DNA from: a virus
Lineage: Duplodnaviria > Caudoviricetes
Virus record (IMG/VR): IMGVR_UViG_3300025389_001380
Coordinates: 3,818 to 67,817 of that record
Direction: 5' to 3' (one strand)
DNA length: 64,000 nt
Position numbers and translations under genes: made by a program. The stretch's first letter is position 1. Each line of letters starts with the position of its first letter. This document shows positions 26,460-59,110 of this stretch, one piece after another. The notes under the pieces are model-generated. The model had not been told where the DNA came from and searched no databases. It worked only from the letters and a program-made list of their open reading frames with translations.

Positions 26460-27521
26460 TCAGGTGCGCAGATTCTTAGCTATGAAATCTTCAATGAGAT
26501 TCATGTTAGCCTGCAGCCTCGTATCACCTGGTAGCTTCTCCAGCGCTAGCTTAGCTTGTTCAAGAGATTCCTCATACAGCTTGAGATTCCATGCCGCGAT
26601 GCTTAGCAGATCATGCGGTTGCCATCCCCATGCTTCGGGTGTGCAGGTATAGTCCATGGGATGCTTGGTCACTTTTAGCGCACGGTGAGCGTAATCATAG
26701 CAGTTCTTCCAGTCTGCGGCTTCATAATAGTGCTGTGCTAGTGCTACCAACGGTTCGCGATGCGTTGGTACTTCATATGCAGCCTGCTTGAGCCAGAATA
26801 CCTTGTTGTCTGGTTCGGCCTGTGCTAGAGTGGTCAGCGCCTGGCAGCGCTCAACAGTATCATAGCTCATGCCAAGGAACTCCTTGTAGGTAGCTGCGCA
26901 CTTGTCCCACATCTTCTGATAGGCATATTCACGTCCCAGATAAGCCTTGATGCGGCTATCATGTGGCCATTCTCGCACGCTCTCTTCCAGCAGCGATAGA
27001 TCGCCACTCTTGCTCTTGGGATCCGGAAAGTGATGTATCTGGAAATCATCTGTGAAGGTGTGTATCTCTGGCAGCCTGCTGATCAGTCCCTCATGCGTGG
27101 CTCCCATCCAGCGATAGCCCTTGCGGCTGTGTATGCGATCACCATACCATTGGCGACCAGGTGTACCGTCTGCGTTCCAGTTCCAGATGTAGGGATAGCG
27201 CAGCCTAGTAGTCTCAGGCTTCCAAGCTGCTTCCAGCTTTTTACGCCAACCGGGGGTCAATCTCTCATCTGTGTCCAATCTGATGCACACGTCTATGTCG
27301 TCTGGGACCAGATACATGGCAGTGTTAAATGCATCGTCAAAGCGCCAAGGTATGATGCGCACGTCGGTGACCTGCACTCCCAGTTCCAACATCTTTTCCT
27401 TGGTGCCATCAGTGCTGCCAGTGTCGGCGATACAGATGATGTCAGCGTCCTTGCAGCTGTCATACCATGCCTGCACGTGGTGCACTTGGTTCTTGGTTGG
27501 TCCATATATTGCTATGCGCAT
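26460..27521 (-). CDS. GT2-family glycosyltransferase with C-terminal TPR-like helices (353 aa)
   Basis: MRIAIYGPTKN...DTGSTDGT...LDTDE...HE; helical C-terminus YLGREY...HREPLVALA. Start set at the TGATG overlap with the upstream gene. Confidence 0.85.
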   Translation of the reverse strand: MRIAIYGPTKNQVHHVQAWYDSCKDADIICIADTGSTDGTKEKMLELGVQVTDVRIIPWRFDDAFNTAMYLVPDDIDVCIRLDTDERLTPGWRKKLEAAWKPETTRLRYPYIWNWNADGTPGRQWYGDRIHSRKGYRWMGATHEGLISRLPEIHTFTDDFQIHHFPDPKSKSGDLSLLEESVREWPHDSRIKAYLGREYAYQKMWDKCAATYKEFLGMSYDTVERCQALTTLAQAEPDNKVFWLKQAAYEVPTHREPLVALAQHYYEAADWKNCYDYAHRALKVTKHPMDYTCTPEAWGWQPHDLLSIAAWNLKLYEESLEQAKLALEKLPGDTRLQANMNLIEDFIAKNLRT

Positions 27522-28594
27522 CACGCTTGTTCCTTGAGCTTGCCCTGCATCCATTGCAGGTTGGTTTTCAATCTATCGTCATTGGGATTTTGGTCTAGAG
27601 CCTGCTGGCACCATTCTGTTGCCTTGCTATACCATCCGAGATTAGCAGCAGCTATGCTACCAAAGTCGCCAAGCTGATTGCCCCAGGCATCTGCATTGTC
27701 TAGATAGCTGTGGTCTCGCCTGCTCTTATCCATGCCAGAACCTGCTGCCCACAGCAGGCCATGCCAATCTTGATTGTTGTAGTAATAACGTGCCAGTTCC
27801 AGCCACACTTGCCTGCGTTCTGGGCTGCAGATCAGGGCACGCTGTAGATATTCCAGCTTGCGGCTGTCAACCATGCGCGATATGTACAGCATGGCTTCTG
27901 AACGTTCTATGGGCCATCTGCTGTTTTCGAGATCCAGATAGCGATTGAGTTCTACCACTGCGTCTGCATGTTGCCCGGCATACATCAGCTCGCGACCATA
28001 CCAGAAGCTCAGCTGGCTGTCTTTGGGATCTTCTGCAGTGGCCAAGGCCATCAATGGCAGATAGCGACCGCGTGTATCCTTGGTGCGATCCTGTATCTGG
28101 TTCAGCACTATGCTGAGATCCTCTGCTACATTCTCATGTCCAACCGTGCTGAACACGGTCTCATGCACAGGACGCTGCCATTGATAACCTATCCTAGCAT
28201 GTATCTTGTCCATGCGGTAACCATCATTGGGCCCACCGTCGCGATAATCAAACACATAGGTGTAGGCCAAGCGCGTGGTCTCGCCTGTGCGCCAAGCTGC
28301 TTCCATCTTGGGTCGCCAACCTTTGGCTAGGAACTCGTCCATGTCCTGGCTGATGCAGATGTCCGTATCTAAGGGCAAGCAGGCCAGTGCAGCATTGCGA
28401 GCATGATCAAAGCGCCAGGGATCGAAGCGCTGCTCAAACACTGTCACGCCCAGCTCCCTGAGCTTTTCCACTGTGCCATCTGTGCTGCCAGTGTCTAGCA
28501 CCACTCTGTAGTCAGCATCTGCCACGCTGGCAGCCCAGCGCTCGCAGTGCTTGATCTCGTTTAATGCCACCGTATAGACACCAATTTTCATCAT
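27521..28594 (-). CDS. GT2-family glycosyltransferase with TPR-like helices (357 aa), paralogue of the previous gene
   Basis: KIGVYTVALNE...DTGSTDGT...FDPWRFDHARNAAL...QDMDE...PVHE. Confidence 0.85.
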   Translation of the reverse strand: MMKIGVYTVALNEIKHCERWAASVADADYRVVLDTGSTDGTVEKLRELGVTVFEQRFDPWRFDHARNAALACLPLDTDICISQDMDEFLAKGWRPKMEAAWRTGETTRLAYTYVFDYRDGGPNDGYRMDKIHARIGYQWQRPVHETVFSTVGHENVAEDLSIVLNQIQDRTKDTRGRYLPLMALATAEDPKDSQLSFWYGRELMYAGQHADAVVELNRYLDLENSRWPIERSEAMLYISRMVDSRKLEYLQRALICSPERRQVWLELARYYYNNQDWHGLLWAAGSGMDKSRRDHSYLDNADAWGNQLGDFGSIAAANLGWYSKATEWCQQALDQNPNDDRLKTNLQWMQGKLKEQA

Positions 28595-48672: not shown

Positions 48673-49362
48673 ATGTATTATGTGTATGCGCTAATTGATC
48701 CAATTACAAATTTACCATTTTATGTAGGTAAGGGTAAAACTTCTAATAATAGACACAAAGACCATTTGTCTGATAGACGCGGAAAAGAAAATAGACTACG
48801 ATGGAAACATATTTGTGACCTGCGTAAATCCGGACTAGAACCCAGAGTCGATATATTATTAGAAAACATCCAAGATGAGAGAGAAGCATATGATCAAGAA
48901 TCAGAGTTCATTAGACAATATGGTAAAATTATTGATGGAACAGGTATATTAACCAATATAGTAGACGATGCTAGACCACCTTCATGGAAAGGTAGGATTA
49001 AATCTAAAGAACACCGAGAAAATTTATCAAAATCACATCTTGGTAAAAAATTGTCACCAGAAACAATCCAAAAAATAAGTGATACCAAAAAAGCCAACGG
49101 AACATACGGTATCAGCGGAATGGCTGGTAAAAATCATAATCAAGAAACTAAAGAGAAATTAAGGTTGGCCCGATTAGGTTCGACAATGAGCCTTGACAGT
49201 TCTGCTAAGAAGAGCGCATCATTACATGGTAAACCTTGGTCAGATGCCAGAAAGATTGCGTCATTAAATCAAAAAAAAACTGGTCCAATCAAAGGACAAC
49301 CTTGGTCGGAAGCTAGACGTTTAGCACAACAAATGAAAAGGACCCATGATGACAACTCCTAG
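48673..49362 (+). mobile_element. Free-standing GIY-YIG (LEM-3-like) homing endonuclease with NUMOD3 repeats (229 aa)
   Basis: YYVYALIDP...PFYVGKG...E.EA...E..FI..YG...G.LTNI, followed by H..ETK.K-type repeats; strongly AT-rich. Confidence 0.88.
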
Positions 49363-49735
49363 AAAACGTATGATTTTTGTTCAATTTCAAAAAGAAGGTA
49401 TCCACAAGTATCCGGCAGCACTGACGGATCCAGCATTGGCCACAGGCGACGAATATGACGTCAGTTTCTTGGGCTATCCACATCGCCATATCTTTGAGTT
49501 CCAAGTATGGATCTCAGTGACGCACAATGACCGTGACGTGGAATTTTTACAGGCAAAAAGATGGCTTGAGAAGCTATATGATCAAAAAACTTTACAGCTA
49601 AACTATCGCAGCTGTGAGATGATTAGTGAAGAACTATATGAGAAGATAATAGATAAGTGGCCAGGTCGTGAGATATGGATTGAGGTATCTGAAGACGGAG
49701 AAAACGGCTGTATACTTAAATGGGATGCTCAATAA
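49346..49735 (+). CDS. dpdL: QueD-like T-fold protein, DpdL-type (putative 7-carboxy-7-deazaguanine decarboxylase)
   Basis: LGYPHRHIF fits the LxxxHRHxF motif that I recall for DpdL; ends in VSEDGENG; sits in the deazaguanine cluster. Start may be 49349. Confidence 0.6.
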   Translation: MMTTPRKRMIFVQFQKEGIHKYPAALTDPALATGDEYDVSFLGYPHRHIFEFQVWISVTHNDRDVEFLQAKRWLEKLYDQKTLQLNYRSCEMISEELYEKIIDKWPGREIWIEVSEDGENGCILKWDAQ

Positions 49736-50832
49736 TGACAGTGTACGTCGTCCCCATCGAACCAATTGATACACGCTATACTCGCCAATGGTATGATCAC
49801 ATTCCAATCTTGCTGGACGGTGCAGGTGTGGACAACGTGGCAATCATCGAAGGGGACGATGTCCCAGCTACACCAACTCCTGGAGCGTTCTTGGATTTTG
49901 GTGCTACCAACATCTACAAGAGCAGCCAACTGGGTATCATCGCGCAGCTGTTCCGTGAGGACAAGATCAAGGACGGCGACAAGTTCCTCTACACAGACGC
50001 GTGGAACCCCACGGTGATCCAGCTGCGCTACATGGCTGAATTGCTTGGCAAAAAGATCGAGATCCACGGGCTTTGGCATGCTGGCAGCTATGATCCGCAG
50101 GACTTCTTAGGGCGCCTAGTTGGTGATAAGCCCTGGGTACGCAATGCCGAATCTAGCATGTTCTATACCTATGACACCAACTGGTTTGCCACGCGATTCC
50201 ACAGCAACATGTTTCTGCGTGAGCTGCTAGGCGTCGAGCCGATGTTTTCTGAAGATGAGACCGAAGAGTTCATCGTTGGCTGTCCAGACTCTGAGATCAA
50301 CCGTCTCAAGCTAACTGGTTGGCCCATGGAATACATGAAGCCATTGCTGGTACCGTTTGCTGGCACAACCAAGCGAGACAAGATCATCTTCCCGCATCGC
50401 TTGGCACCAGAGAAGCAGCTGGAGATATTCAAAGACTTAGCAGAAGCCATGCCAGAATATGAATGGTTCATAGCACAGGAGCAGAAGCTCAGCAAGGATG
50501 AATACCATCAGCATCTAGCAGAAAGCAAGATCGCGTTCAGTGCAAACCTACAGGAGACATTAGGTATCTCGATGTATGAAGCAGCACTGGTTGGCACATA
50601 TCCCATGGTACCAAACAGGCTCAGCTACACAGAGATGTGGAGCGAGTGCTATCCCAACGAATGGACCAAGAACTGGGACAGCTATCAAGCCAACAAGGAC
50701 AAGCTGATCACGCACATACGCTATCTCATGAACCGCAACAGCTTGTCTAGCCATGCTACAGCAGAAGCTGAACAGGTTGGTACCAAGTTCTTCACAGCAA
50801 CTCCTTTGATCCAAGAGCTAGTTCGTGCTTGA
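49735..50832 (+). CDS. GT-B fold glycosyltransferase (365 aa)
   Basis: C-terminal FPHRLAPEKQ...ETLGISMYEAALVG-P-VP, a GT4-like donor-binding motif. Start set at the TAATG overlap (track starts at 49720). Confidence 0.72.
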   Translation: MTVYVVPIEPIDTRYTRQWYDHIPILLDGAGVDNVAIIEGDDVPATPTPGAFLDFGATNIYKSSQLGIIAQLFREDKIKDGDKFLYTDAWNPTVIQLRYMAELLGKKIEIHGLWHAGSYDPQDFLGRLVGDKPWVRNAESSMFYTYDTNWFATRFHSNMFLRELLGVEPMFSEDETEEFIVGCPDSEINRLKLTGWPMEYMKPLLVPFAGTTKRDKIIFPHRLAPEKQLEIFKDLAEAMPEYEWFIAQEQKLSKDEYHQHLAESKIAFSANLQETLGISMYEAALVGTYPMVPNRLSYTEMWSECYPNEWTKNWDSYQANKDKLITHIRYLMNRNSLSSHATAEAEQVGTKFFTATPLIQELVRA

Positions 50833-50857
50833 CAAGATCACCACCATAGGCCATACT
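50829..50857 (+). promoter_or_regulatory. Sigma70-type promoter TTGACA-N17-CATACT, 5 nt before ATG 50863
   Basis: No SD, so probably a leaderless transcript. Confidence 0.55.
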
Positions 50858-50862
50858 GATAC

Positions 50863-52521
50863 ATGAACAAAGATTTCAAACGATTCAGTTTTGACACTGA
50901 CCACCTCACCTTCAATGACAAGTGCAGGAACATGGCTGTAACACAGCGCGATTATGCGCTGTTCCTTCCCAGCATCAGCATGATCTATGCCAAGATCGTC
51001 AGCATGGTTGAATATAACATGCGCGACAAGATGCCAGAGGGCCTGCCACAAGGACTCAAGGATCTCAACTTCCTTGATCCAGCCAACAGCTTGTTCTACT
51101 ATCCAGTTGCTCTGTATTCAGCAGGCCATGCTATTCTGGATCCACAGGAAAGCTGGGTACAGGAAAGCATGGTGCAACAGCGCGATCGTGCCAACACGGT
51201 ATTGCTGGGCGACAGCGGCGGCTTCCAAGCAGCCACAGGCGTGCTGAAGTATCCATGGTATCCCAAGGGCAAGCAGACGCCAGAAGAGCATCAGAACGAC
51301 AAGGATGACGTGAGGCTCAAGCTGTTGCGCTGGTTGGAAGCTACAGCAGACTACAGCATGGTGCTAGATTGGCCAACCTATGCGTTGGTCAAGTACGGAT
51401 TTGATCCAGTCACGGGCGAGAGCCTGCATCCCAGCTTGAAGAGCTTTAACGACTGCTTGACTGGCAGCTTGGACAACCACAACTTCTTCATCAAGAATCG
51501 CAAGGAAGGTGCCACCAAGTTCCTCAACGTCCTACAGGGACGCAACATGGAAGAAGGCGACATCTGGTGGGATGCTGCCAAGGATCTGCCATTTGAGAGC
51601 TGGGCGTTCTCCAACGTGCAGGCTTCTAACTTCACCATCAACCTGCGGCGCTTGATCATCATGCGCGACGAGAACTATCTAGCAGGACGCGAATGGCTGC
51701 ACTATCTAGGCAATGGCAAGATCAAGGCTGGCTGTGCTCTGACCACGCTGCAGCGCACGCTGCGCAAGCATGTAGATGATCAGCTGACCATCAGCTTTGA
51801 CGCAGCATCACCGTTCGTGATGACTGCCAAGGGCCAGATGTACTATGGACACGAGCTGAGCCCAGACAACGTGGGCTTCAAGGGTGGTCCAATCGTAGAC
51901 AAGAAAGAACTGAAGAACAATCCACAGCTGTTGAACGATTGGATCATGGAGAATCTGCCCAAGAAGTTGGTACCAGTGCGCAGCCGCATCGGTGATCAGG
52001 TATCAGTGGGTGACATCTGCATTCGAGGCTACGATGACCTTGAAAGCAAGAAGGTAGCGTTCACCAAGAAAGAGATTGAAAGCGGCTACTGGGCTACAAC
52101 TCCAGAAGGCCGGGCCAACGATCCATTCAAGTGGACCAAGGCCTACAAGGAATACGTGATACACAGCCACGAGAACGGCGGCGTGTTTGACCTAGGTACC
52201 AATCGGTTCGCAGATGCACACAGCAAGTATCAGGAGAAGTGGCCCAGCAGCATGGATGGTTTCAGCTACCTGTTGGCCATGAACCACAACACAGAGCTGC
52301 ACATCAATGCCATACAGGCTGCCAACATGGCGCAGGATCTGCCCATGCACGAGGCCAAGGAACTGCTGACACCAGATCTGCTGGAGTTCAAGGATCTCTG
52401 TGAAGACATCTTCACATCAGAACGTCCCATGGATCTGATCATGCGTCATGAGAAGATGCTGCAGAAGATCACAGGCATGGATGCCGACAACCAAGTGAGC
52501 TACGACGTGGAGAACATGTGA
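50863..52521 (+). CDS. dpdA: DpdA/TGT-family 7-deazaguanine DNA transglycosylase (552 aa)
   Basis: GDSGGFQ (TGT catalytic motif), SMVLDWP, VLQG, HYLG and ISFDAASPF; clustered with folE, queD and queE. Confidence 0.75.
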   Translation: MNKDFKRFSFDTDHLTFNDKCRNMAVTQRDYALFLPSISMIYAKIVSMVEYNMRDKMPEGLPQGLKDLNFLDPANSLFYYPVALYSAGHAILDPQESWVQESMVQQRDRANTVLLGDSGGFQAATGVLKYPWYPKGKQTPEEHQNDKDDVRLKLLRWLEATADYSMVLDWPTYALVKYGFDPVTGESLHPSLKSFNDCLTGSLDNHNFFIKNRKEGATKFLNVLQGRNMEEGDIWWDAAKDLPFESWAFSNVQASNFTINLRRLIIMRDENYLAGREWLHYLGNGKIKAGCALTTLQRTLRKHVDDQLTISFDAASPFVMTAKGQMYYGHELSPDNVGFKGGPIVDKKELKNNPQLLNDWIMENLPKKLVPVRSRIGDQVSVGDICIRGYDDLESKKVAFTKKEIESGYWATTPEGRANDPFKWTKAYKEYVIHSHENGGVFDLGTNRFADAHSKYQEKWPSSMDGFSYLLAMNHNTELHINAIQAANMAQDLPMHEAKELLTPDLLEFKDLCEDIFTSERPMDLIMRHEKMLQKITGMDADNQVSYDVENM

Positions 52522-52724
52522 TGATATACCTAACAGGGGAAGGCGAGACCGTAAGGAATGGTATCAATCTCTATAGATTGAGCGATCCAAGCAGCGCTGG
52601 TTTCAAGCTGCGGCTGGGTAGATACTTGTTCATGCTGCGTTGGAGCAAGGGGAGACAACGCTTCTTCGTGCGCAGCGAGATCGTGCCAGGTCACTCACCA
52701 GATTGGATGAAAGGTACCAAGTGA
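52518..52724 (+). CDS. Hypothetical protein (68 aa)
   Basis: Coupled by overlaps at both ends. Confidence 0.6.
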   Translation: MMIYLTGEGETVRNGINLYRLSDPSSAGFKLRLGRYLFMLRWSKGRQRFFVRSEIVPGHSPDWMKGTK

Positions 52725-53248
52725 TGGAAAGAGATTACATAGACGGTGTGAAGACAGACGTGACCTTCTTCACTGGCATTGAAGTAGAAAATACACCCAT
52801 GAAAGGTGCGTTTACGCTGTTTGTCGTTGGTCGTCAAGACGTGGACGACATCGACAAGATGGCACAGTTCAAAGTATGCAAGCACATCTATCTTGGTGCC
52901 AATCAAAGCTTCAAGGTCAAGGGTTATGATGACTACATGGTTTGGAAGAGCTGGGATGATCTCTGCGTGTCACTGCTGGATCGAGGATACTGGGTCACGC
53001 TGGATTTTGACGTGGAACATTGGCTAGGTGTGGCTGAGATGAGTGCTATTAGCCACAATCAGTTCATCCCGCAGATATCGGTAAAGATACCTTATATTTC
53101 ACTGGGCAACTACAACACCTGCGTGAAGATCGATGACACAGGTTTCAAAGCCAGCAATCCAGGAGTGTGGGTGCACAGCCTACATGATCTCATGGATCGC
53201 AAGGTGTTCACGCCCTGGGCTGCCTATTCCAAGGACGAACAAGCATGA
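52724..53248 (+). CDS. Conserved phage protein in the deazaguanine cluster (174 aa)
   Basis: FTGIEVENTP...TLFVVG...HIYLGANQSF...GVWVHSL; start set at the TGATG overlap. Confidence 0.7.
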   Translation: MERDYIDGVKTDVTFFTGIEVENTPMKGAFTLFVVGRQDVDDIDKMAQFKVCKHIYLGANQSFKVKGYDDYMVWKSWDDLCVSLLDRGYWVTLDFDVEHWLGVAEMSAISHNQFIPQISVKIPYISLGNYNTCVKIDDTGFKASNPGVWVHSLHDLMDRKVFTPWAAYSKDEQA

Positions 53249-53910: not shown

Positions 53911-54597
53911 TTGACTATCAGTGATAAGATACGCCAGCGAATCAAAGCAGCTGGTGCAAGCTTCAATGCTAACGACAACATCAGCGCATACATAGAACCA
54001 GGTGAAACTGATCAACTGATCGATGAGCTAAATGCACGCTTTGACGCAGTGCTGGACAGCTTGATCATTGATCGCGAGAACGATCCCAACAGCCACGATA
54101 CTGGTCGACGGTTGGCAAAGATGTATGTTAAAGAGCTGATGAGTGGCAGATATTTCGCTGCACCAAAGGCAACTAGCTTTCCCAATGACAGCGCAGAACG
54201 CTACGAAGGCATGTTGGTGGTTCGCAGCGAGCTCAAGAGCGTGTGCAGCCATCACCATCAGCCAGTGAGTGGCGTGGCCTACATTGGCATCATCGCAGCA
54301 CAGAAGCTGATCGGTCTCAGCAAGTACAGCAGGATAGCACAGTGGTGTGCACGTCGCGGTACGCTGCAGGAAGAGCTGTGCAACGACATTGCCAAGGAGA
54401 TCATGAGGGCCACTGACTCAGAGAACGTGGGAGTGTACATCCAAGCTTCCCATGGATGCTGCGAAAATCGGGGCCTAATGGCACATTCTAGTTTGACACA
54501 GACCACTGTGCTGCGCGGTGCGTTCTTTACAGATCAGAGCACCAAGAAAGAATTCTTTGACAACATCAAGCTGCAACAGGAATTCGCACCAAGATAA
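53911..54597 (+). CDS. folE: GTP cyclohydrolase I
   Basis: SVCSHHHQP, IGLSKYSRI, LQEEL and HGCCENRG; TTG start after GGGAG. Confidence 0.93.
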   Translation: MTISDKIRQRIKAAGASFNANDNISAYIEPGETDQLIDELNARFDAVLDSLIIDRENDPNSHDTGRRLAKMYVKELMSGRYFAAPKATSFPNDSAERYEGMLVVRSELKSVCSHHHQPVSGVAYIGIIAAQKLIGLSKYSRIAQWCARRGTLQEELCNDIAKEIMRATDSENVGVYIQASHGCCENRGLMAHSSLTQTTVLRGAFFTDQSTKKEFFDNIKLQQEFAPR

Positions 54598-54676: not shown

Positions 54677-55171
54677 ATGACACCAGTAACTTACAAGTAC
54701 ACCAGCACTAAAGAATACCACGACGCATTTCCCTGCGCTTATCGCCAGTGGCGAGCAGATAGCCACTGCAACATGATACACGGTTACAGCTTCTCAATGA
54801 AGTTCTACTTCGGCACTGACAACCTGGATGTGCGCAACTGGGCAGCAGACTACGGCGGTCTCAAGGAGCTCAAGAAGATCCTAGAAGACCAGTTTGATCA
54901 CACGCTGTTGGTGGCTGAAGATGATCCTGAGATGGATACGTTCAAGCTGTTGCAATCAAAGAAACTGGCCAAGCTGACTATCCTGCCCAAGTTAGGCTGC
55001 GAAGGTCTGGCTGACATGCTGTACAAGTACGTGAACGGCGTGTACATCCCAGATCTCTGGGGACCAGGAGAAGCAGCACGCTTATGGTGCTATCGCGTGG
55101 AAGTGCGCGAGACACAGGCCAACATGGCTTTCCGCGAAGGTCACAGGGAGTGGAACGAGGAACTGATATGA
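54677..55171 (+). CDS. queD: 6-carboxy-5,6,7,8-tetrahydropterin synthase (QueD/PTPS)
   Basis: HCNMIHGYS (CxxxHG, third His replaced by Tyr), DYGGLK...FDHTLL and EGLA...VEVRET. Confidence 0.85.
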   Translation: MTPVTYKYTSTKEYHDAFPCAYRQWRADSHCNMIHGYSFSMKFYFGTDNLDVRNWAADYGGLKELKKILEDQFDHTLLVAEDDPEMDTFKLLQSKKLAKLTILPKLGCEGLADMLYKYVNGVYIPDLWGPGEAARLWCYRVEVRETQANMAFREGHREWNEELI

Positions 55172-55823: not shown

Positions 55824-56372
55824 ATGGCAGCGATAGGAACAGTTTCTCCACTCACAAACATCACCACAGGAAGCTACACTACCGCTACCATCGGCGGAGG
55901 TGGCGGTGGTGGGGTTGGCGCAATCACATTAACATCAACGGGTGCTGGTTATACCAGCACCACTACACCATACATAACGGTGTCAGGCGGGGGAACGGGC
56001 TACGCCAATCAAGTGCTCACTACCAACACAGGTGGTGCGACTAGTTGGACAGGTATCGGCGGTAAAGAAGTCATGCGCATCAGCGCAGATGGTGATATCT
56101 TCCAAGGTGGCAGTAGTAATGCCGATGACGGCGTGTTTGCACGCCTTGAACGCTTGGAACGCCTCATGGGTATCATGCGCCGAGACCGCAGCCTAGAAAG
56201 CGATTACGAACCCATGCGCCAGCTTGGCGATGCCTACGATGACGCAGTTGATGCTGCTATCTCAGCCATCATGGAAGTCACGTTGGGCAAGCTGAGGCAC
56301 ATGGAACAAGAATACGAGAACATGCGTGAGCAGGCCAAGGTCTGGCGTGCGCTGAGCAAGGATGACGACTGA
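55824..56372 (+). CDS. Hypothetical protein (182 aa), T/G-rich N-terminus and helical C-terminus
   Basis: Tightly packed ORF in the operon. Confidence 0.65.
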   Translation: MAAIGTVSPLTNITTGSYTTATIGGGGGGGVGAITLTSTGAGYTSTTTPYITVSGGGTGYANQVLTTNTGGATSWTGIGGKEVMRISADGDIFQGGSSNADDGVFARLERLERLMGIMRRDRSLESDYEPMRQLGDAYDDAVDAAISAIMEVTLGKLRHMEQEYENMREQAKVWRALSKDDD

Positions 56373-56792: not shown

Positions 56793-57010
56793 TGCCATTG
56801 ATATACGAAAGCCCAGACAAAGGCGTCACAGTCTATGGCAGAGAGCTAGGACACATGGATCGCCATCTGGTAAAGGGCAACCCAACAGATCCCTACGAGC
56901 ATCTCTATCTGTGGCATGACATCGTCGCTGCCAGTGAAACCAATCCAGCCTTGCGCGAAGTGCTGGATCAAGCTATAATGATCTATAAGCTGAGCAAGGA
57001 GCAACCATGA
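56792..57010 (+). CDS. Conserved phage hypothetical protein (72 aa)
   Basis: IYESPDKGVTVY-R motif; coupled to its neighbours. Confidence 0.7.
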   Translation: MPLIYESPDKGVTVYGRELGHMDRHLVKGNPTDPYEHLYLWHDIVAASETNPALREVLDQAIMIYKLSKEQP

Positions 57011-57918
57011 GCACTGCCAAGAAGTACCGTTACAGCGAGATATTTGGTGGCAACGCAGGCCCCACTCCAACCATACAGGGCGAAGGTCGCTATGGCGGAC
57101 ATCCAACAGTATGGATCCGTTTCTGGGGTTGCAATCTCAACTGCAATGGCTTCGGACAAGCCAATCCCAGAGATCCCAGCACCTACAAGCTGGACTACTT
57201 GGACTATGATCCCAAGGCCAACAACATCAGCAAGATGGATGACTTACCTGTGTGGACAACTGGCTGTGACAGCAGCTACAGCTGGAGCACTCGCTATGGG
57301 CATCTAGCGCATCAGAGCACAGCAGAAGAGATCTGCGCTGATTTCCGCAGCAGGTTGCAGGGCAGCAGCTTCATACATCCTCGCAGCGGACAAGACGTGC
57401 ATTTGGCATTCACTGGCGGTGAACCCATGATGAGCCAGACTGGCATCGTGGACATCATGCAGACTCTGCGCATGCAGAACGACAGTCCTCGACACATCAC
57501 CATCGAGACCAACGGCACCCAAGCACCTCGCAAGGCATTCACAGATTTCTTCACCAACAAAGGCATGTACAACGGCGAACTGTTCTGGAGTTGCAGCCCC
57601 AAGCTGGGTACCAGTGGTGAAAAGTGGGACGATGCTATCATGCCAGCCATCGTGCGAGAATATCGCTTGATCAGCAACGTTGGTCAGCTCAAGTTCGTGC
57701 TTGACAAGAATCCCTTGACCTGGGACGAGCTTGAACGTGCAGTTGATGCGTTCCGCGCTGTAGATGTGAACTGGCCAGTGTGGATCATGCCAGTTGGTGC
57801 CACCAGAGAAGAACAAGAAGACGTGCAGATGTGGGTCACAGAAGAAGCGCTCAAGCGCGGCTACAATGTAGCAGCTCGCATACACTGCTGGATCTTCAGC
57901 AACGTGATAGGACGATAA
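57007..57918 (+). CDS. queE: 7-carboxy-7-deazaguanine synthase (radical SAM)
   Basis: YSEIF...IQGEG...RFWGCNLNC...GCDS (long insert before the third Cys), TGGEP, ETNGT, SPKL and RIH. Confidence 0.9.
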   Translation: MSTAKKYRYSEIFGGNAGPTPTIQGEGRYGGHPTVWIRFWGCNLNCNGFGQANPRDPSTYKLDYLDYDPKANNISKMDDLPVWTTGCDSSYSWSTRYGHLAHQSTAEEICADFRSRLQGSSFIHPRSGQDVHLAFTGGEPMMSQTGIVDIMQTLRMQNDSPRHITIETNGTQAPRKAFTDFFTNKGMYNGELFWSCSPKLGTSGEKWDDAIMPAIVREYRLISNVGQLKFVLDKNPLTWDELERAVDAFRAVDVNWPVWIMPVGATREEQEDVQMWVTEEALKRGYNVAARIHCWIFSNVIGR

Positions 57919-57919
57919 C

Positions 57920-58513
57920 ATGAGCAAGATTCCATTCTCTTGGTTGCCAGCTAGCTGGGGGCTCAAGGGCAAGAGCCGAGAGCTAGCAGAAGCAGAATAT
58001 TACCTAACCGGCTATGACTTAGACGTGGCCAAGGCACGTATCGAGCATGGGCTAGCAAGCCCAGAGTTCACCAAGAGCGTGCTAGATATCGATCTAGCCT
58101 ATGGCAAGATCAGCGCATATGATCACGATACCAGATTGGCAGAGATAGGCAACACCGACGAGACTGCGTTGGCACTGGCCAAGCTGGATGTAGACCTCAA
58201 GCACAATAAGATCAGCGCACAAGAACATGAACGCAAGGTCGCTGACCTCAAGAATGAACCATACATGGCCATGCCCAAAATCAGCTGGGACCCAGTTGAT
58301 CCCAGCAAGACTTTCTTTGAGCTGGATTACAATGATGCGTTCGTGCAATCGCTGCGATCCAACAGCTACCAGGGCACAGATGAGGACGTGATCAATCGCT
58401 GGCTCAACGATGTGTGCAACAGCATCCTGTCAGAGATGGCTCCAACCGATCCAGAATTCGTTAGCAACGTGCGGCGGATTCGCAGAGATGATGGCAAGAC
58501 TGAGCACAGCTAA
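57920..58513 (+). CDS. Conserved phage hypothetical protein (197 aa)
   Basis: PFSWLPASWGLKG...FFELDYN. Confidence 0.7.
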   Translation: MSKIPFSWLPASWGLKGKSRELAEAEYYLTGYDLDVAKARIEHGLASPEFTKSVLDIDLAYGKISAYDHDTRLAEIGNTDETALALAKLDVDLKHNKISAQEHERKVADLKNEPYMAMPKISWDPVDPSKTFFELDYNDAFVQSLRSNSYQGTDEDVINRWLNDVCNSILSEMAPTDPEFVSNVRRIRRDDGKTEHS

Positions 58514-58528: not shown

Positions 58529-59110
58529 GTGAACCAGACACTTACCACACTTTTTGACAGCCCGGAATGGCCTTTGATATACAGGCAACAGGCCAGCCGT
58601 GGCATGCTTGACGAGCTCAAGAGCTTGCCCTATCCTGCCATTGGTATCGAGATAGGAGTAGGACTTGGCATGAACAGCTGGTACATGCTGACTGAATGTC
58701 CTAACATCGCCACCATCACCGGCGTGGATCACTATGCACCATACCACGACTGGGATAAACCGGTCACTCGCATAGAAGCAGAGGCCAACTACGCCATACT
58801 GCAGGCCAACATGCCACTCATGGGTGATAGGTTTAACTTCATACGCGAAGACAGCCAGAAAGCCGCAGCAATGCTGGAAGACGAAGCTTACGATTTCGTG
58901 TTCATAGATGGTGGTCACAGCATGAAACAGGTATTGGCAGATCTAGACAGTTGGGTTCCAAAAGTGCGTCCAGGTGGCTTGGTTGCTGGACATGATGCCA
59001 ACCTATTCTCTGTTAACTTCGCAGTAACCAGCTGGGCCAAGGCACACGACATCCCAGCCAAGCAGGTGCGCATGGTTGCCAACGACGGTTGGTACTGGCG
59101 CAAATCTTAA
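58529..59110 (+). CDS. Class I SAM-dependent methyltransferase (Methyltransf_24-like)
   Basis: GIEIGVGLG...GVD...DFVFIDGGH...DL..W.PKVRPGGLVAGHD. Confidence 0.82.
   Translation: MNQTLTTLFDSPEWPLIYRQQASRGMLDELKSLPYPAIGIEIGVGLGMNSWYMLTECPNIATITGVDHYAPYHDWDKPVTRIEAEANYAILQANMPLMGDRFNFIREDSQKAAAMLEDEAYDFVFIDGGHSMKQVLADLDSWVPKVRPGGLVAGHDANLFSVNFAVTSWAKAHDIPAKQVRMVANDGWYWRKS

Follow-up and report, generated by a model that had tools for sequence, protein, structure and literature searches.

The closest described system to the locus analysed here is the DpdL/DpdA3 pathway of Cellulophaga phage phiST, in which guanine in the phage DNA is replaced and the modified base was measured as plain dDG (Cui et al. 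2023, PMC10516641). DpdL is a QueD paralogue carrying the signature LxxxHRHxF in place of the CxxxHGH of QueD (Cui et al. 2023, PMC10516641). The phiST pathway comprises this paralogue together with FolE, QueD, QueE and a TGT-like transglycosylase, and lacks QueC. Eight deazaguanines have been described in DNA, all of them sugar-free, and the natural DNA glycosylations in the literature searched are all on hydroxylated pyrimidines. No description of a glycosylated 7-deazaguanine DNA base was found in the literature searched; an earlier mention elsewhere of the glycosyltransferase (GT) reported here is possible.

Sugar transfer to 7-deazapurines is known outside DNA. In huimycin biosynthesis, HuiG (PF13439) transfers GlcNAc from UDP-GlcNAc onto a free preQ0-derived 7-deazapurine. 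In eukaryotic tRNA, the glycosyltransferases QTGAL and QTMAN add a sugar to a nucleic-acid 7-deazaguanine base, giving galactosyl- and mannosyl-queuosine; there the nucleic acid is RNA, and the cyclopentenediol of queuosine, which takes the sugar, is beyond the reach of a pathway without QueC such as the one described below.

The stretch of viral DNA analysed here (the window, 64,000 nucleotides) contains genes of the same kinds as phiST and, in addition, a GT gene wedged between those for a DpdL-type protein and a long DpdA, as the first-pass annotation had noticed. The features are listed in Table 1. FolE, QueD, QueE and DpdA are present and QueC was not found in the 64 kb (source genome 13% complete), so that DpdL is in the company expected of it. 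Its motif LGYPHRHIF fits the DpdL signature, and tblastn with this protein recovered phiST DpdL (E 3e-9) and a homologue in phage Phosso (60% identity); it matched a PHROG family, and nothing in Pfam or NCBIfam. Unlike the window, phiST has neither the GT nor the conserved 175-residue protein o175.

Table 1 Features of the GT locus in the window.
Feature	Position	Strand	Description
DpdL-type QueD paralogue	49346..49735	+	129 aa; proposed 7-carboxy-7-deazaguanine decarboxylase; LGYPHRHIF; phrog_17812
GT	49735..50832	+	365 aa; GT-B, GT4-like, probably retaining; central finding
Sigma-70-like consensus match	50829..50857	+	TTGACA-17-CATACT, 10/12; overlaps GT stop
Long DpdA-family DNA guanine transglycosylase, TGT fold	50863..52521	+	552 aa; DSGGFQ, LQG, FDAASP
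o175 (alignment A2), conserved protein	52724..53248	+	175 aa; 30 invariant columns
FolE (GTP cyclohydrolase I)	53911..54597	+	PF01227, E 8e-38; phrog_2197
QueD (CPH4 synthase)	54677..55171	+	PF01242, E 1.6e-15; phrog_2389
QueE-like radical SAM enzyme (CDG synthase)	57007..57918	+	PF13353
o197 (alignment A3), conserved protein	57920..58513	+	directly 3' of QueE

The GT is a real open reading frame, and its homologues start at the position of the ATG at 49735. This codon takes its A from the dpdL stop (TAA, 49733-49735), which gives the TAATG overlap recorded in the first-pass annotation. An alternative in-frame ATG is found at 49720. The GT2/TPR genes of the window, from which the GT had been said to be far removed, are at 26460-28594 on the opposite strand, about 21 kb away. 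A dpdA promoter had also been placed at the end of the GT: the site is present, yet it is no more than a consensus match, and the region holds 10 of them, a count not above that in shuffled sequence (7.4 +/- 2.6).

The long DpdA matched no family in Pfam (TGT included), PHROG or NCBIfam. Its AF2 model (pLDDT 79.4) nevertheless has tRNA-guanine transglycosylases for all of its best 50 Foldseek PDB matches, and the motifs DSGGFQ (D117), LQG (Q225) and FDxASP (D313) are invariant. In hhalign comparisons it matched the DpdA of phage ACP17 with 93.6% probability and the short, 259-residue DpdA3-type protein of phiST (gp042) with only 25%. Several QueE NCBIfam models match the window QueE weakly, each with a score under its cut-off. 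Downstream of DpdA, o175 gave no lead in Pfam, PHROG, NCBIfam, a PDB profile search or the ESM Atlas, and o197, which adjoins QueE in most loci, matched no PDB profile and no Pfam, PHROG or NCBIfam family. Small GT-adjacent proteins in BUDD, BCSR5 and locus L051 look o175-like by eye, a likeness to which hhalign gives no support. The window ORF at 55824-56372 was considered as the PRTase of other loci and rejected, there being no similarity.

The GT belongs to a large family, with at least 7988 proteins in a word-indexed search and at least 1111 clusters at 50% identity. A DpdL accompanies it in 91 of 98 non-identical viral loci, a long DpdA in 82, o175 in 78, FolE in 76 and a QueE-sized family in 63. 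In the reverse direction, loci found through DpdA, with 5 kb on either side, contain the GT in every case (43/43) and o175 in 40. In the window, in Phosso, in PA5oct-type phages and in ACP17 the first codon of the GT overlaps a DpdL or DpdA stop codon, and the pair of GT and long DpdA persists even where the two genes lie 25-170 kb apart within one genome. More distant relatives of the GT (25-38% identity), in phages BUDD and BCSR5 and on five of six metagenome contigs, lie beside FolE, QueD and QueE or a DpdL-motif gene; the one exception is a short contig of 2.7 kb. The pairing with DpdA is retained by relatives at 25-35% identity. Distant GT relatives are also found next to a BshB-like or CE4 deacetylase. 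The first-pass annotation had named a GT widespread without dpd genes as the outcome that would tell against its proposal; this was looked for and is not the case: wherever a locus of phage or bacterium was sampled adequately, the GT and the long DpdA are found together. The distribution supports a functional link between the GT and the deazaguanine pathway.

The association is not confined to viruses. In bacterial assemblies the GT is paired with the same type of DpdA in all 22 chromosomal loci, which are mostly from Alphaproteobacteria and include both isolates and metagenome-assembled genomes; Methylobacterium, Magnetospirillum and Pelagibacterium have isolates with the pair. A YhhQ-like transporter often stands alongside, and small islands consist of DpdA, transporter and GT without FolE, QueD or QueE. 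DpdL is missing from half of the bacterial loci, which implies that the acceptor need not be plain 7-deazaguanine.

The contrast phages point the same way. In phiST, RHph_I1_18 and Ahp1, which have DpdL, the GT and the long DpdA are found nowhere in the genome, and among five complete GT-bearing phages none has a QueC above the cut-off. No thymidylate-synthase-family gene was found in the complete genomes of ACP17, BCSR5 and BUDD, and without a hydroxymethylase of that family these phages would have no 5-hydroxymethylpyrimidine acceptor of the kind found in T4-type phages or in base J. These observations bear on the possibility that the GT acts on something other than a deazaguanine, such as DpdA itself, some other protein of phage or host, or a different base of the DNA, and is linked to the dpd genes through a shared early replication and modification operon. 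The module does sit among replication genes (polymerase, sliding clamp, RNase H), the acceptors of GT4 enzymes are highly diverse, and the module carrier PA5oct is reported to have further DNA-modification enzymes of the Mom type. Such a role is nonetheless unlikely, as the pairing is kept outside phage replication operons in the small bacterial islands and across the long distances within single genomes, the replication genes of GT-less DpdL phages bring no GT with them, and the hydroxymethylase for a pyrimidine acceptor is missing from the three complete GT-bearing phages.

The window GT has no match in Pfam (E 0.01), PHROG or NCBIfam, which counts against the role proposed below. Its BUDD homologue scores above the Pfam Glycos_transf_1 cut-off (45.7 bits against 26.4), and some relatives had been annotated beforehand with PF00534 or PF13439. 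The family profile matches GT1-type PDB chains, with the motif QETLGIxxxE aligned on the E-x7-E stretch of 8xsg and 2f9f. The AF2 model (pLDDT 94.1, pTM 0.91) consists of two Rossmann-like domains with an interdomain cleft, and its VIA Z scores of 20-25.6 against GT4-type enzymes bear out the GT-B fold given in the first-pass annotation. The closest solved structure among the best 50 matches is 6kih (Z 25.6 over 314 residues), and BshA (Z 23.6), PimB', LmbT and PglA fall within Z 20-24. The nearest solved structures to this predicted model are thus those of retaining GT4 enzymes acting on small molecules.

The C-terminal domain carries the GT4 donor-binding motifs R-x4-K (diphosphate) and E-x7-E. 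In an alignment of 81 sequences, reaching down to 30% identity, no variation is seen at R222, E274, G277 or E282, conservation of K227 is 90% or more, and H115 is also invariant or nearly so. The gene is therefore predicted to encode an active GT4-type glycosyltransferase, and this forms part of the best explanation. An obligate complex would likewise fit the strict one-to-one pairing and the translational coupling to DpdA or DpdL; the GT-like protein would then assist the long DpdA without catalysing anything itself (for example as a scaffold or a subunit handling DNA or base), and the DNA would contain plain dDG. The DpdA of Salmonella is reportedly dependent on a partner protein, DpdB. The conservation of these six residues would be unexpected in a pseudo-enzyme, and we consider a non-catalytic role very improbable.

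Among the structural neighbours, BshA and MshA, which are GT4 enzymes that transfer GlcNAc from UDP-GlcNAc onto malate or inositol phosphate ahead of a deacetylase, share both donor-binding motifs with the GT (Foldseek E 2e-10). They differ in serving thiol cofactor synthesis, in having no link to nucleic acids and in an identity of about 10-13%. The first-pass annotation had likened the GT to the T4 alpha- and beta-glucosyltransferases (AGT and BGT). The kinship of fold stands, generic as it is for GT-B enzymes, but small-molecule GT4 enzymes come before AGT (1y6f), which is only 32nd (Z 18.4), and the best 50 matches listed do not include BGT. AGT resembles the proposed enzyme in being a phage GT-B protein that adds sugar to a modified base of already replicated DNA. 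Another phage GT-B protein, the HY126 glycosyltransferase (9iqz), matches at Z 18.8; HY126 DNA has arabinosylated 5-hydroxycytosine, although 9iqz was not tied to a specific transfer step in the literature searched. Both differ in their hydroxylated-pyrimidine acceptors, and some 30 GT4 enzymes for small molecules or glycans rank above them. In BFVD, a cyanophage protein named 'DNA alpha-GT' is 35th among the structure matches to the GT. Structural rank is a poor guide to whether the acceptor is DNA or a small molecule. Net charge fails as a discriminator as well: the GT N-domain is acidic (pI 4.5), but so is the DpdA family.

HuiG is a closer chemical precedent for the window GT than the T4 enzymes, the known likeness in sequence being one of Pfam clan only, and it shows a glycosyltransferase of this Pfam type to be capable of glycosylating a 7-deazapurine. 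Both are GT-B proteins of the same clan, and the acceptor of HuiG is a 7-deazaguanine-type base derived through FolE, QueD and QueE. HuiG differs in belonging to an actinomycete secondary-metabolite cluster with QueC and a methyltransferase and without DpdA, and in giving a soluble product. By analogy, the product of the GT could be a glycosylated deazapurine or pterin that stays soluble and is never built into DNA, huimycin-like or biopterin-glucoside-like, for example for storage, for export or as an inhibitor. Besides the free base that HuiG accepts, this would suit the tetrahydrobiopterin glucosyltransferases found among the structural neighbours (5zer, Z 19.8, and 9v0l), the small-molecule substrates of the closest solved structures and the part that FolE and QueD also play in pterin chemistry. 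The constant partner of the GT is a DNA transglycosylase, however, and not FolE or QueD; the bacterial islands have GT and DpdA without FolE, QueD and QueE, and published secondary-metabolite deazapurine clusters are defined by the absence of DpdA. A soluble end product is thus distinctly unlikely.

We favour, with a probability of roughly 0.55, the interpretation that the GT is dedicated to tailoring in a 7-deazaguanine DNA-modification pathway without QueC. In this pathway FolE, QueD and QueE, by chemistry established for these families, would convert GTP to 7-carboxy-7-deazaguanine, and DpdL would strip the carboxyl group to give 7-deazaguanine, as in a published proposal that the dDG measured in phiST supports. 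The long DpdA, on the evidence of its fold and motifs, would swap guanine in the phage DNA for the deazapurine, and the GT would glycosylate the deazaguanine with a host nucleotide-sugar as donor. The expected end product is a glycosylated 7-deazaguanine in virion DNA that would block restriction. The product, the acceptor atom, the donor sugar and the order of the steps are what we infer from gene association. A donor made by the RuBisCO-like sugar operon of the window was rejected, as this operon is absent from four of five other GT-bearing viral records, one of them 91% complete; nor is a conserved sugar-nucleotide gene adjoining the GT found among the 22 commonest neighbour families.

The sugar may go onto N2, as in huimycin, onto the C7 that DpdL frees, or onto another atom. 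As 7-deazaguanine lacks a hydroxyl group, N- or C-glycosylation would be required, which is unusual for GT4 enzymes and counts against the proposed role. We slightly favour glycosylation of the free base before insertion, which would account for the bond between the GT and a long DpdA subfamily of its own; glycosylation within DNA is nearly as likely. In TGT-type pockets the base is normally recognised through its N1/N2 edge, a point against insertion of an N2-glycosylated base. More specifically, the GT might make a free sugar-deazaguanine, such as a C- or N-glycoside of the DpdL product, which the specialised long DpdA inserts as a glyco-base, the pair also marking the chromosomes of carrier bacteria from mobile, defence-like islands; this fuller version is tentative and, taken as a whole, doubtful.

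Megablast of the window region against isolated phages gave no match. Carriers of the GT are in culture, the phages on tractable hosts: PA5oct-type phages (on Pseudomonas aeruginosa PAO1), ACP17, BUDD, BCSR5 and Phosso, as well as bacterial isolates. Expression of ACP17 dpdL and dpdA alone in E. coli gave no dDG, and the phiST genes, from a phage without the GT, failed likewise (Cui et al. 2023, PMC10516641). The GT may help to explain the ACP17 failure, and also the modified G reported in PA5oct, for which no chemistry has been assigned. If the proposed role is true, the bases known from DNA would gain a new class, with a sugar on 7-deazaguanine, and this would probably have a strong influence on restriction enzymes, CRISPR nucleases, sequencing chemistry and defences that sense modification, such as END nucleases. 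Were a free glyco-base inserted, no glycosylated purine would have been known in DNA before it, nor any insertion of a complete sugar-base by transglycosylation.

The 365-residue glycosyltransferase (GT) of the window had no match among the Pfam, PHROG and NCBIfam models. Its AlphaFold model, for which 81 homologues were the input, has two domains (pLDDT 94.1, pTM 0.91) and bears out the GT-B fold proposed in the first-pass annotation. In an all-against-representatives structural search the best neighbours of the model were retaining GT4/GT5-type enzymes, including sucrose-phosphate synthase (Z 25.6), BshA (Z 23.6) and PimB', LmbT, GlgM and PglA (about Z 22); Foldseek was consistent with this type ranking first. 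Further down the same list were tetrahydrobiopterin glucosyltransferase (Z 19.8) and the phage HY126 glycosyltransferase (Z 18.8), while T4 alpha-glucosyltransferase, although structurally similar, was at rank 32 (Z 18.4), below the GT4/GT5-type enzymes. R222 and K227 (FPHRxAPEK) and E274-x7-E282 (QETLGIxxxE), which in GT4 enzymes make up the diphosphate-binding and E-x7-E motifs, are invariant or nearly so among homologues down to 30% identity, and the distant homologue of Xanthomonas phage BUDD clears the Pfam Glycos_transf_1 cut-off. We conclude from the sequence and the predicted structure that GT is a putative catalytically intact nucleotide-sugar transferase, whose mechanism is probably retaining. 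The family has at least 7988 proteins (word-indexed search), which fall into 1111 clusters when grouped at 50% identity. In the pooled viral loci (n = 98) the 22 commonest neighbour families of GT include no gene of sugar-nucleotide synthesis, so that a widespread metabolite of the host is the probable donor.

The source record is 67.8 kb long with a CheckV completeness of 13%, which indicates a very large phage genome. The dpdL stop and the GT start codon have one base in common at 49735, confirming the TAATG overlap described earlier. A small ORF of about 81 codons separates the two genes in 46 of the 98 viral loci (e.g. L152 4977-5222) and is missing from the window, where they overlap directly. 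The start of dpdL is itself overlapped by the 3' end of a homing endonuclease gene (49346-49362). The promoter placed at the 3' end of GT does match the consensus (10 of 12 positions, 50829-50857), but matches of this type are no more frequent in the region than in shuffled sequence. The GT2 genes are, as annotated, separate from GT and not linked to it; a RuBisCO-like sugar operon in the window was also considered and has no link to GT. The methyltransferase gene lies directly 3' of those for QueE and o197, and 5' of a 5'-3' exonuclease/RNase H gene.

Features of the window and of related loci (L-numbers)
Feature	Coordinates	Strand	Motifs or remarks
GIY-YIG/NUMOD3 homing endonuclease	48673-49362	+	
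DpdL, 129 aa	49346-49735	+	LGYPHRHIF
GT, 365 aa	49735-50832	+	
Long DpdA, 552 aa	50863-52521	+	DSGGFQ, LQG, FDxASP
o175, ~175 aa	52724-53248	+	alignment A2
FolE	53911-54597	+	
QueD	54677-55171	+	
QueE-like radical SAM enzyme	57007-57918	+	
o197	57920-58513	+	alignment A3
Methyltransf_24-family methyltransferase	58529-59110	+	
Bacterial islands	L065-L091; e.g. L067 6089-9035; L075 6324-11082		long DpdA + YhhQ-like + GT, with or without DpdL
Phosphoribosyltransferase/HIT examples	L135 12370-12885; L020 14479-14877; L056 3376-3858		

The proposed co-occurrence of GT with dpd genes was checked in both directions, and linkage was found in each. DpdL lay inside the fetched flank in 33 of the 40 IMG/VR loci retrieved with GT; five of the other seven end within 0.9 kb upstream of GT, and for the remaining two the full records have long DpdA farther off, one of them also DpdL. 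Among the 98 pooled, non-identical viral loci the commonest neighbours were DpdL (91), long DpdA (82), o175 (78), FolE (76) and QueE (63). Replication genes came next, together with those for a phosphoribosyltransferase (40) and for a HIT protein (25). Conversely, of 80 loci found with a DpdA profile, all 43 with at least 5 kb on either side encode GT, and the 19 without it all end less than 3.2 kb downstream of DpdA. More distant GTs (25–38% identity) of BUDD and Burkholderia phage BCSR5 have as neighbours either FolE/QueD/QueE or a gene with the DpdL motif together with a DSGG-motif protein. The same holds for five out of six metagenomic contigs of smaller phages; the remaining contig spans only 2.7 kb. 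In the PhiXhv-15 group (22% identity) GT instead adjoins GlmS and a BshB-like deacetylase (Xanthomonas phage PhiXhv-15, L047 6756-9990), and a long-DpdA-like protein is encoded elsewhere in that genome. Comparative genomics could hardly give a stronger link than the one these loci show between GT and the machinery of deazaguanine DNA modification.

LGYPHRHIF fits the LxxxHRHxF signature that defines DpdL, a proposed 7-carboxy-7-deazaguanine (CDG) decarboxylase (PMC10516641). The best 50 PDB matches of the long DpdA model (pLDDT 79) were all tRNA-guanine transglycosylases. In hhalign comparisons the protein aligns with ACP17 DpdA (from an Acidovorax phage) at 93.6% probability, but only weakly with the short DpdA3 of phage phiST; for this reason it is named here as a long member of the DpdA family, with no subfamily assigned.

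DpdL is encoded in 28 isolated-phage records, 17 with GT and 11 without. Whole-genome profile searches of the GT-less phages phiST, RHph_I1_18 and Ahp1 revealed neither GT nor long DpdA, which argues that the two form one unit. The DpdL of phiST is homologous to that of the window, but this phage has no GT and a short DpdA3, and its dG is fully replaced by plain 7-deazaguanine nucleoside (dDG; Cui et al. 2023, PMC10516641). From these gene contents we conclude that the unit would be an addition to, or a partial replacement of, the dDG pathway. ACP17 dpdL and dpdA alone yielded no dDG in E. coli; the phiST genes failed likewise (PMC10516641), so the ACP17 result is weak support. QueC is absent from each of five complete GT-bearing phages searched, whose pathway would thus end at CDG or 7-deazaguanine. 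In three of these phages genes of the thymidylate synthase family are lacking as well, making a 5-hydroxymethylpyrimidine acceptor unavailable in them.

The analysis shows a GT-B fold, a donor site that is intact, and a strict association of GT with a DNA transglycosylase and with genes for deazaguanine synthesis; we infer that GT adds a sugar to a deazaguanine destined for DNA. The eight DNA deazaguanines of Cui et al. are all sugar-free, with no mention of a glycosyltransferase (PMC10516641), and a literature search of incomplete coverage found no report of a glycosylated deazaguanine in DNA. PA5oct is among the phages with the module; it withstands enzymes requiring G and is attacked by nucleases sensing modified G, a pattern that points to some modified form of G. 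Reviews up to mid-2026 only predict deazaguanine incorporation in jumbo phages.

GT could glycosylate the free deazaguanine, with DpdA then inserting the product. This order is favoured by the nearest structures, which act on small molecules, and by huimycin biosynthesis, where HuiG uses UDP-GlcNAc to glycosylate a 7-deazapurine, its acceptor being the free preQ0-derived base. It is also favoured by the different DpdA of GT-less phages, as expected if the transglycosylase pocket must fit the GT product. Alternatively, the sugar would be added once the deazaguanine sits in DNA, which has the T4 precedent and fits the usual recognition of the base N1/N2 edge by TGT. Candidate acceptor atoms are N2, as in huimycin, and C7, which DpdL would free and which would account for DpdL being so often required. 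Deacetylases adjoin two distant GT relatives, in PhiXhv-15 and in L055 (8001-11073, a CE4 polysaccharide deacetylase with a methyltransferase). This hints at a GlcNAc-to-GlcN sugar in these two lineages only, and suggests an amino-sugar tailored after transfer. The chemical product of GT is a prediction, for which cultured phages would allow a direct check.

Several accessory genes are conserved. o175 has 30 invariant positions (FxGxEVExT, HIYxG, KIDD, NxGVW), and in most loci (78 of 98) its translation is coupled to that of long DpdA. No functionally characterised protein was recognised as its relative; it is probably a fourth core component. In o197, directly after QueE in most loci, the N-terminus varies and is coiled or charged, whereas the C-terminal motif ELDWNxxFxxxLxxxGY...W is conserved; one PA5oct-type phage has it under the annotation 'putative secreted protein'. 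The phosphoribosyltransferase and HIT-family protein recur between FolE and QueE, with no recognisable counterpart in the window. They may serve guanine salvage or point to nucleotide-level chemistry; that the former recycles guanine excised by base exchange is speculation.

Prokaryotes were screened with a single genome for each species, which gave 49 cellular GT loci. Many of these lie on large chromosomal contigs from isolates of Pelagibacterium, Devosia, Ochrobactrum, Methylobacterium, Magnetospirillum, Shimia, Sulfitobacter and Aurantimonas. In all 22 analysed, from isolates and MAGs and mostly alphaproteobacterial, GT adjoins the same DpdA type. Sixteen encode a Vut_1/YhhQ-like membrane protein, scoring slightly below the Pfam cut-off, and 11 encode DpdL. 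The islands with a transporter and no DpdL suggest that the acceptor is perhaps wider than plain 7-deazaguanine. A resolvase or integrase flanks these loci, joined in Magnetospirillum by a HEPN protein and a nuclease of CoiA-like type. The loci resemble small islands of a mobile or defence type more than prophages, and may be a system for self-marking or defence that relies on deazaguanine and differs from the classical dpdA-K cluster.
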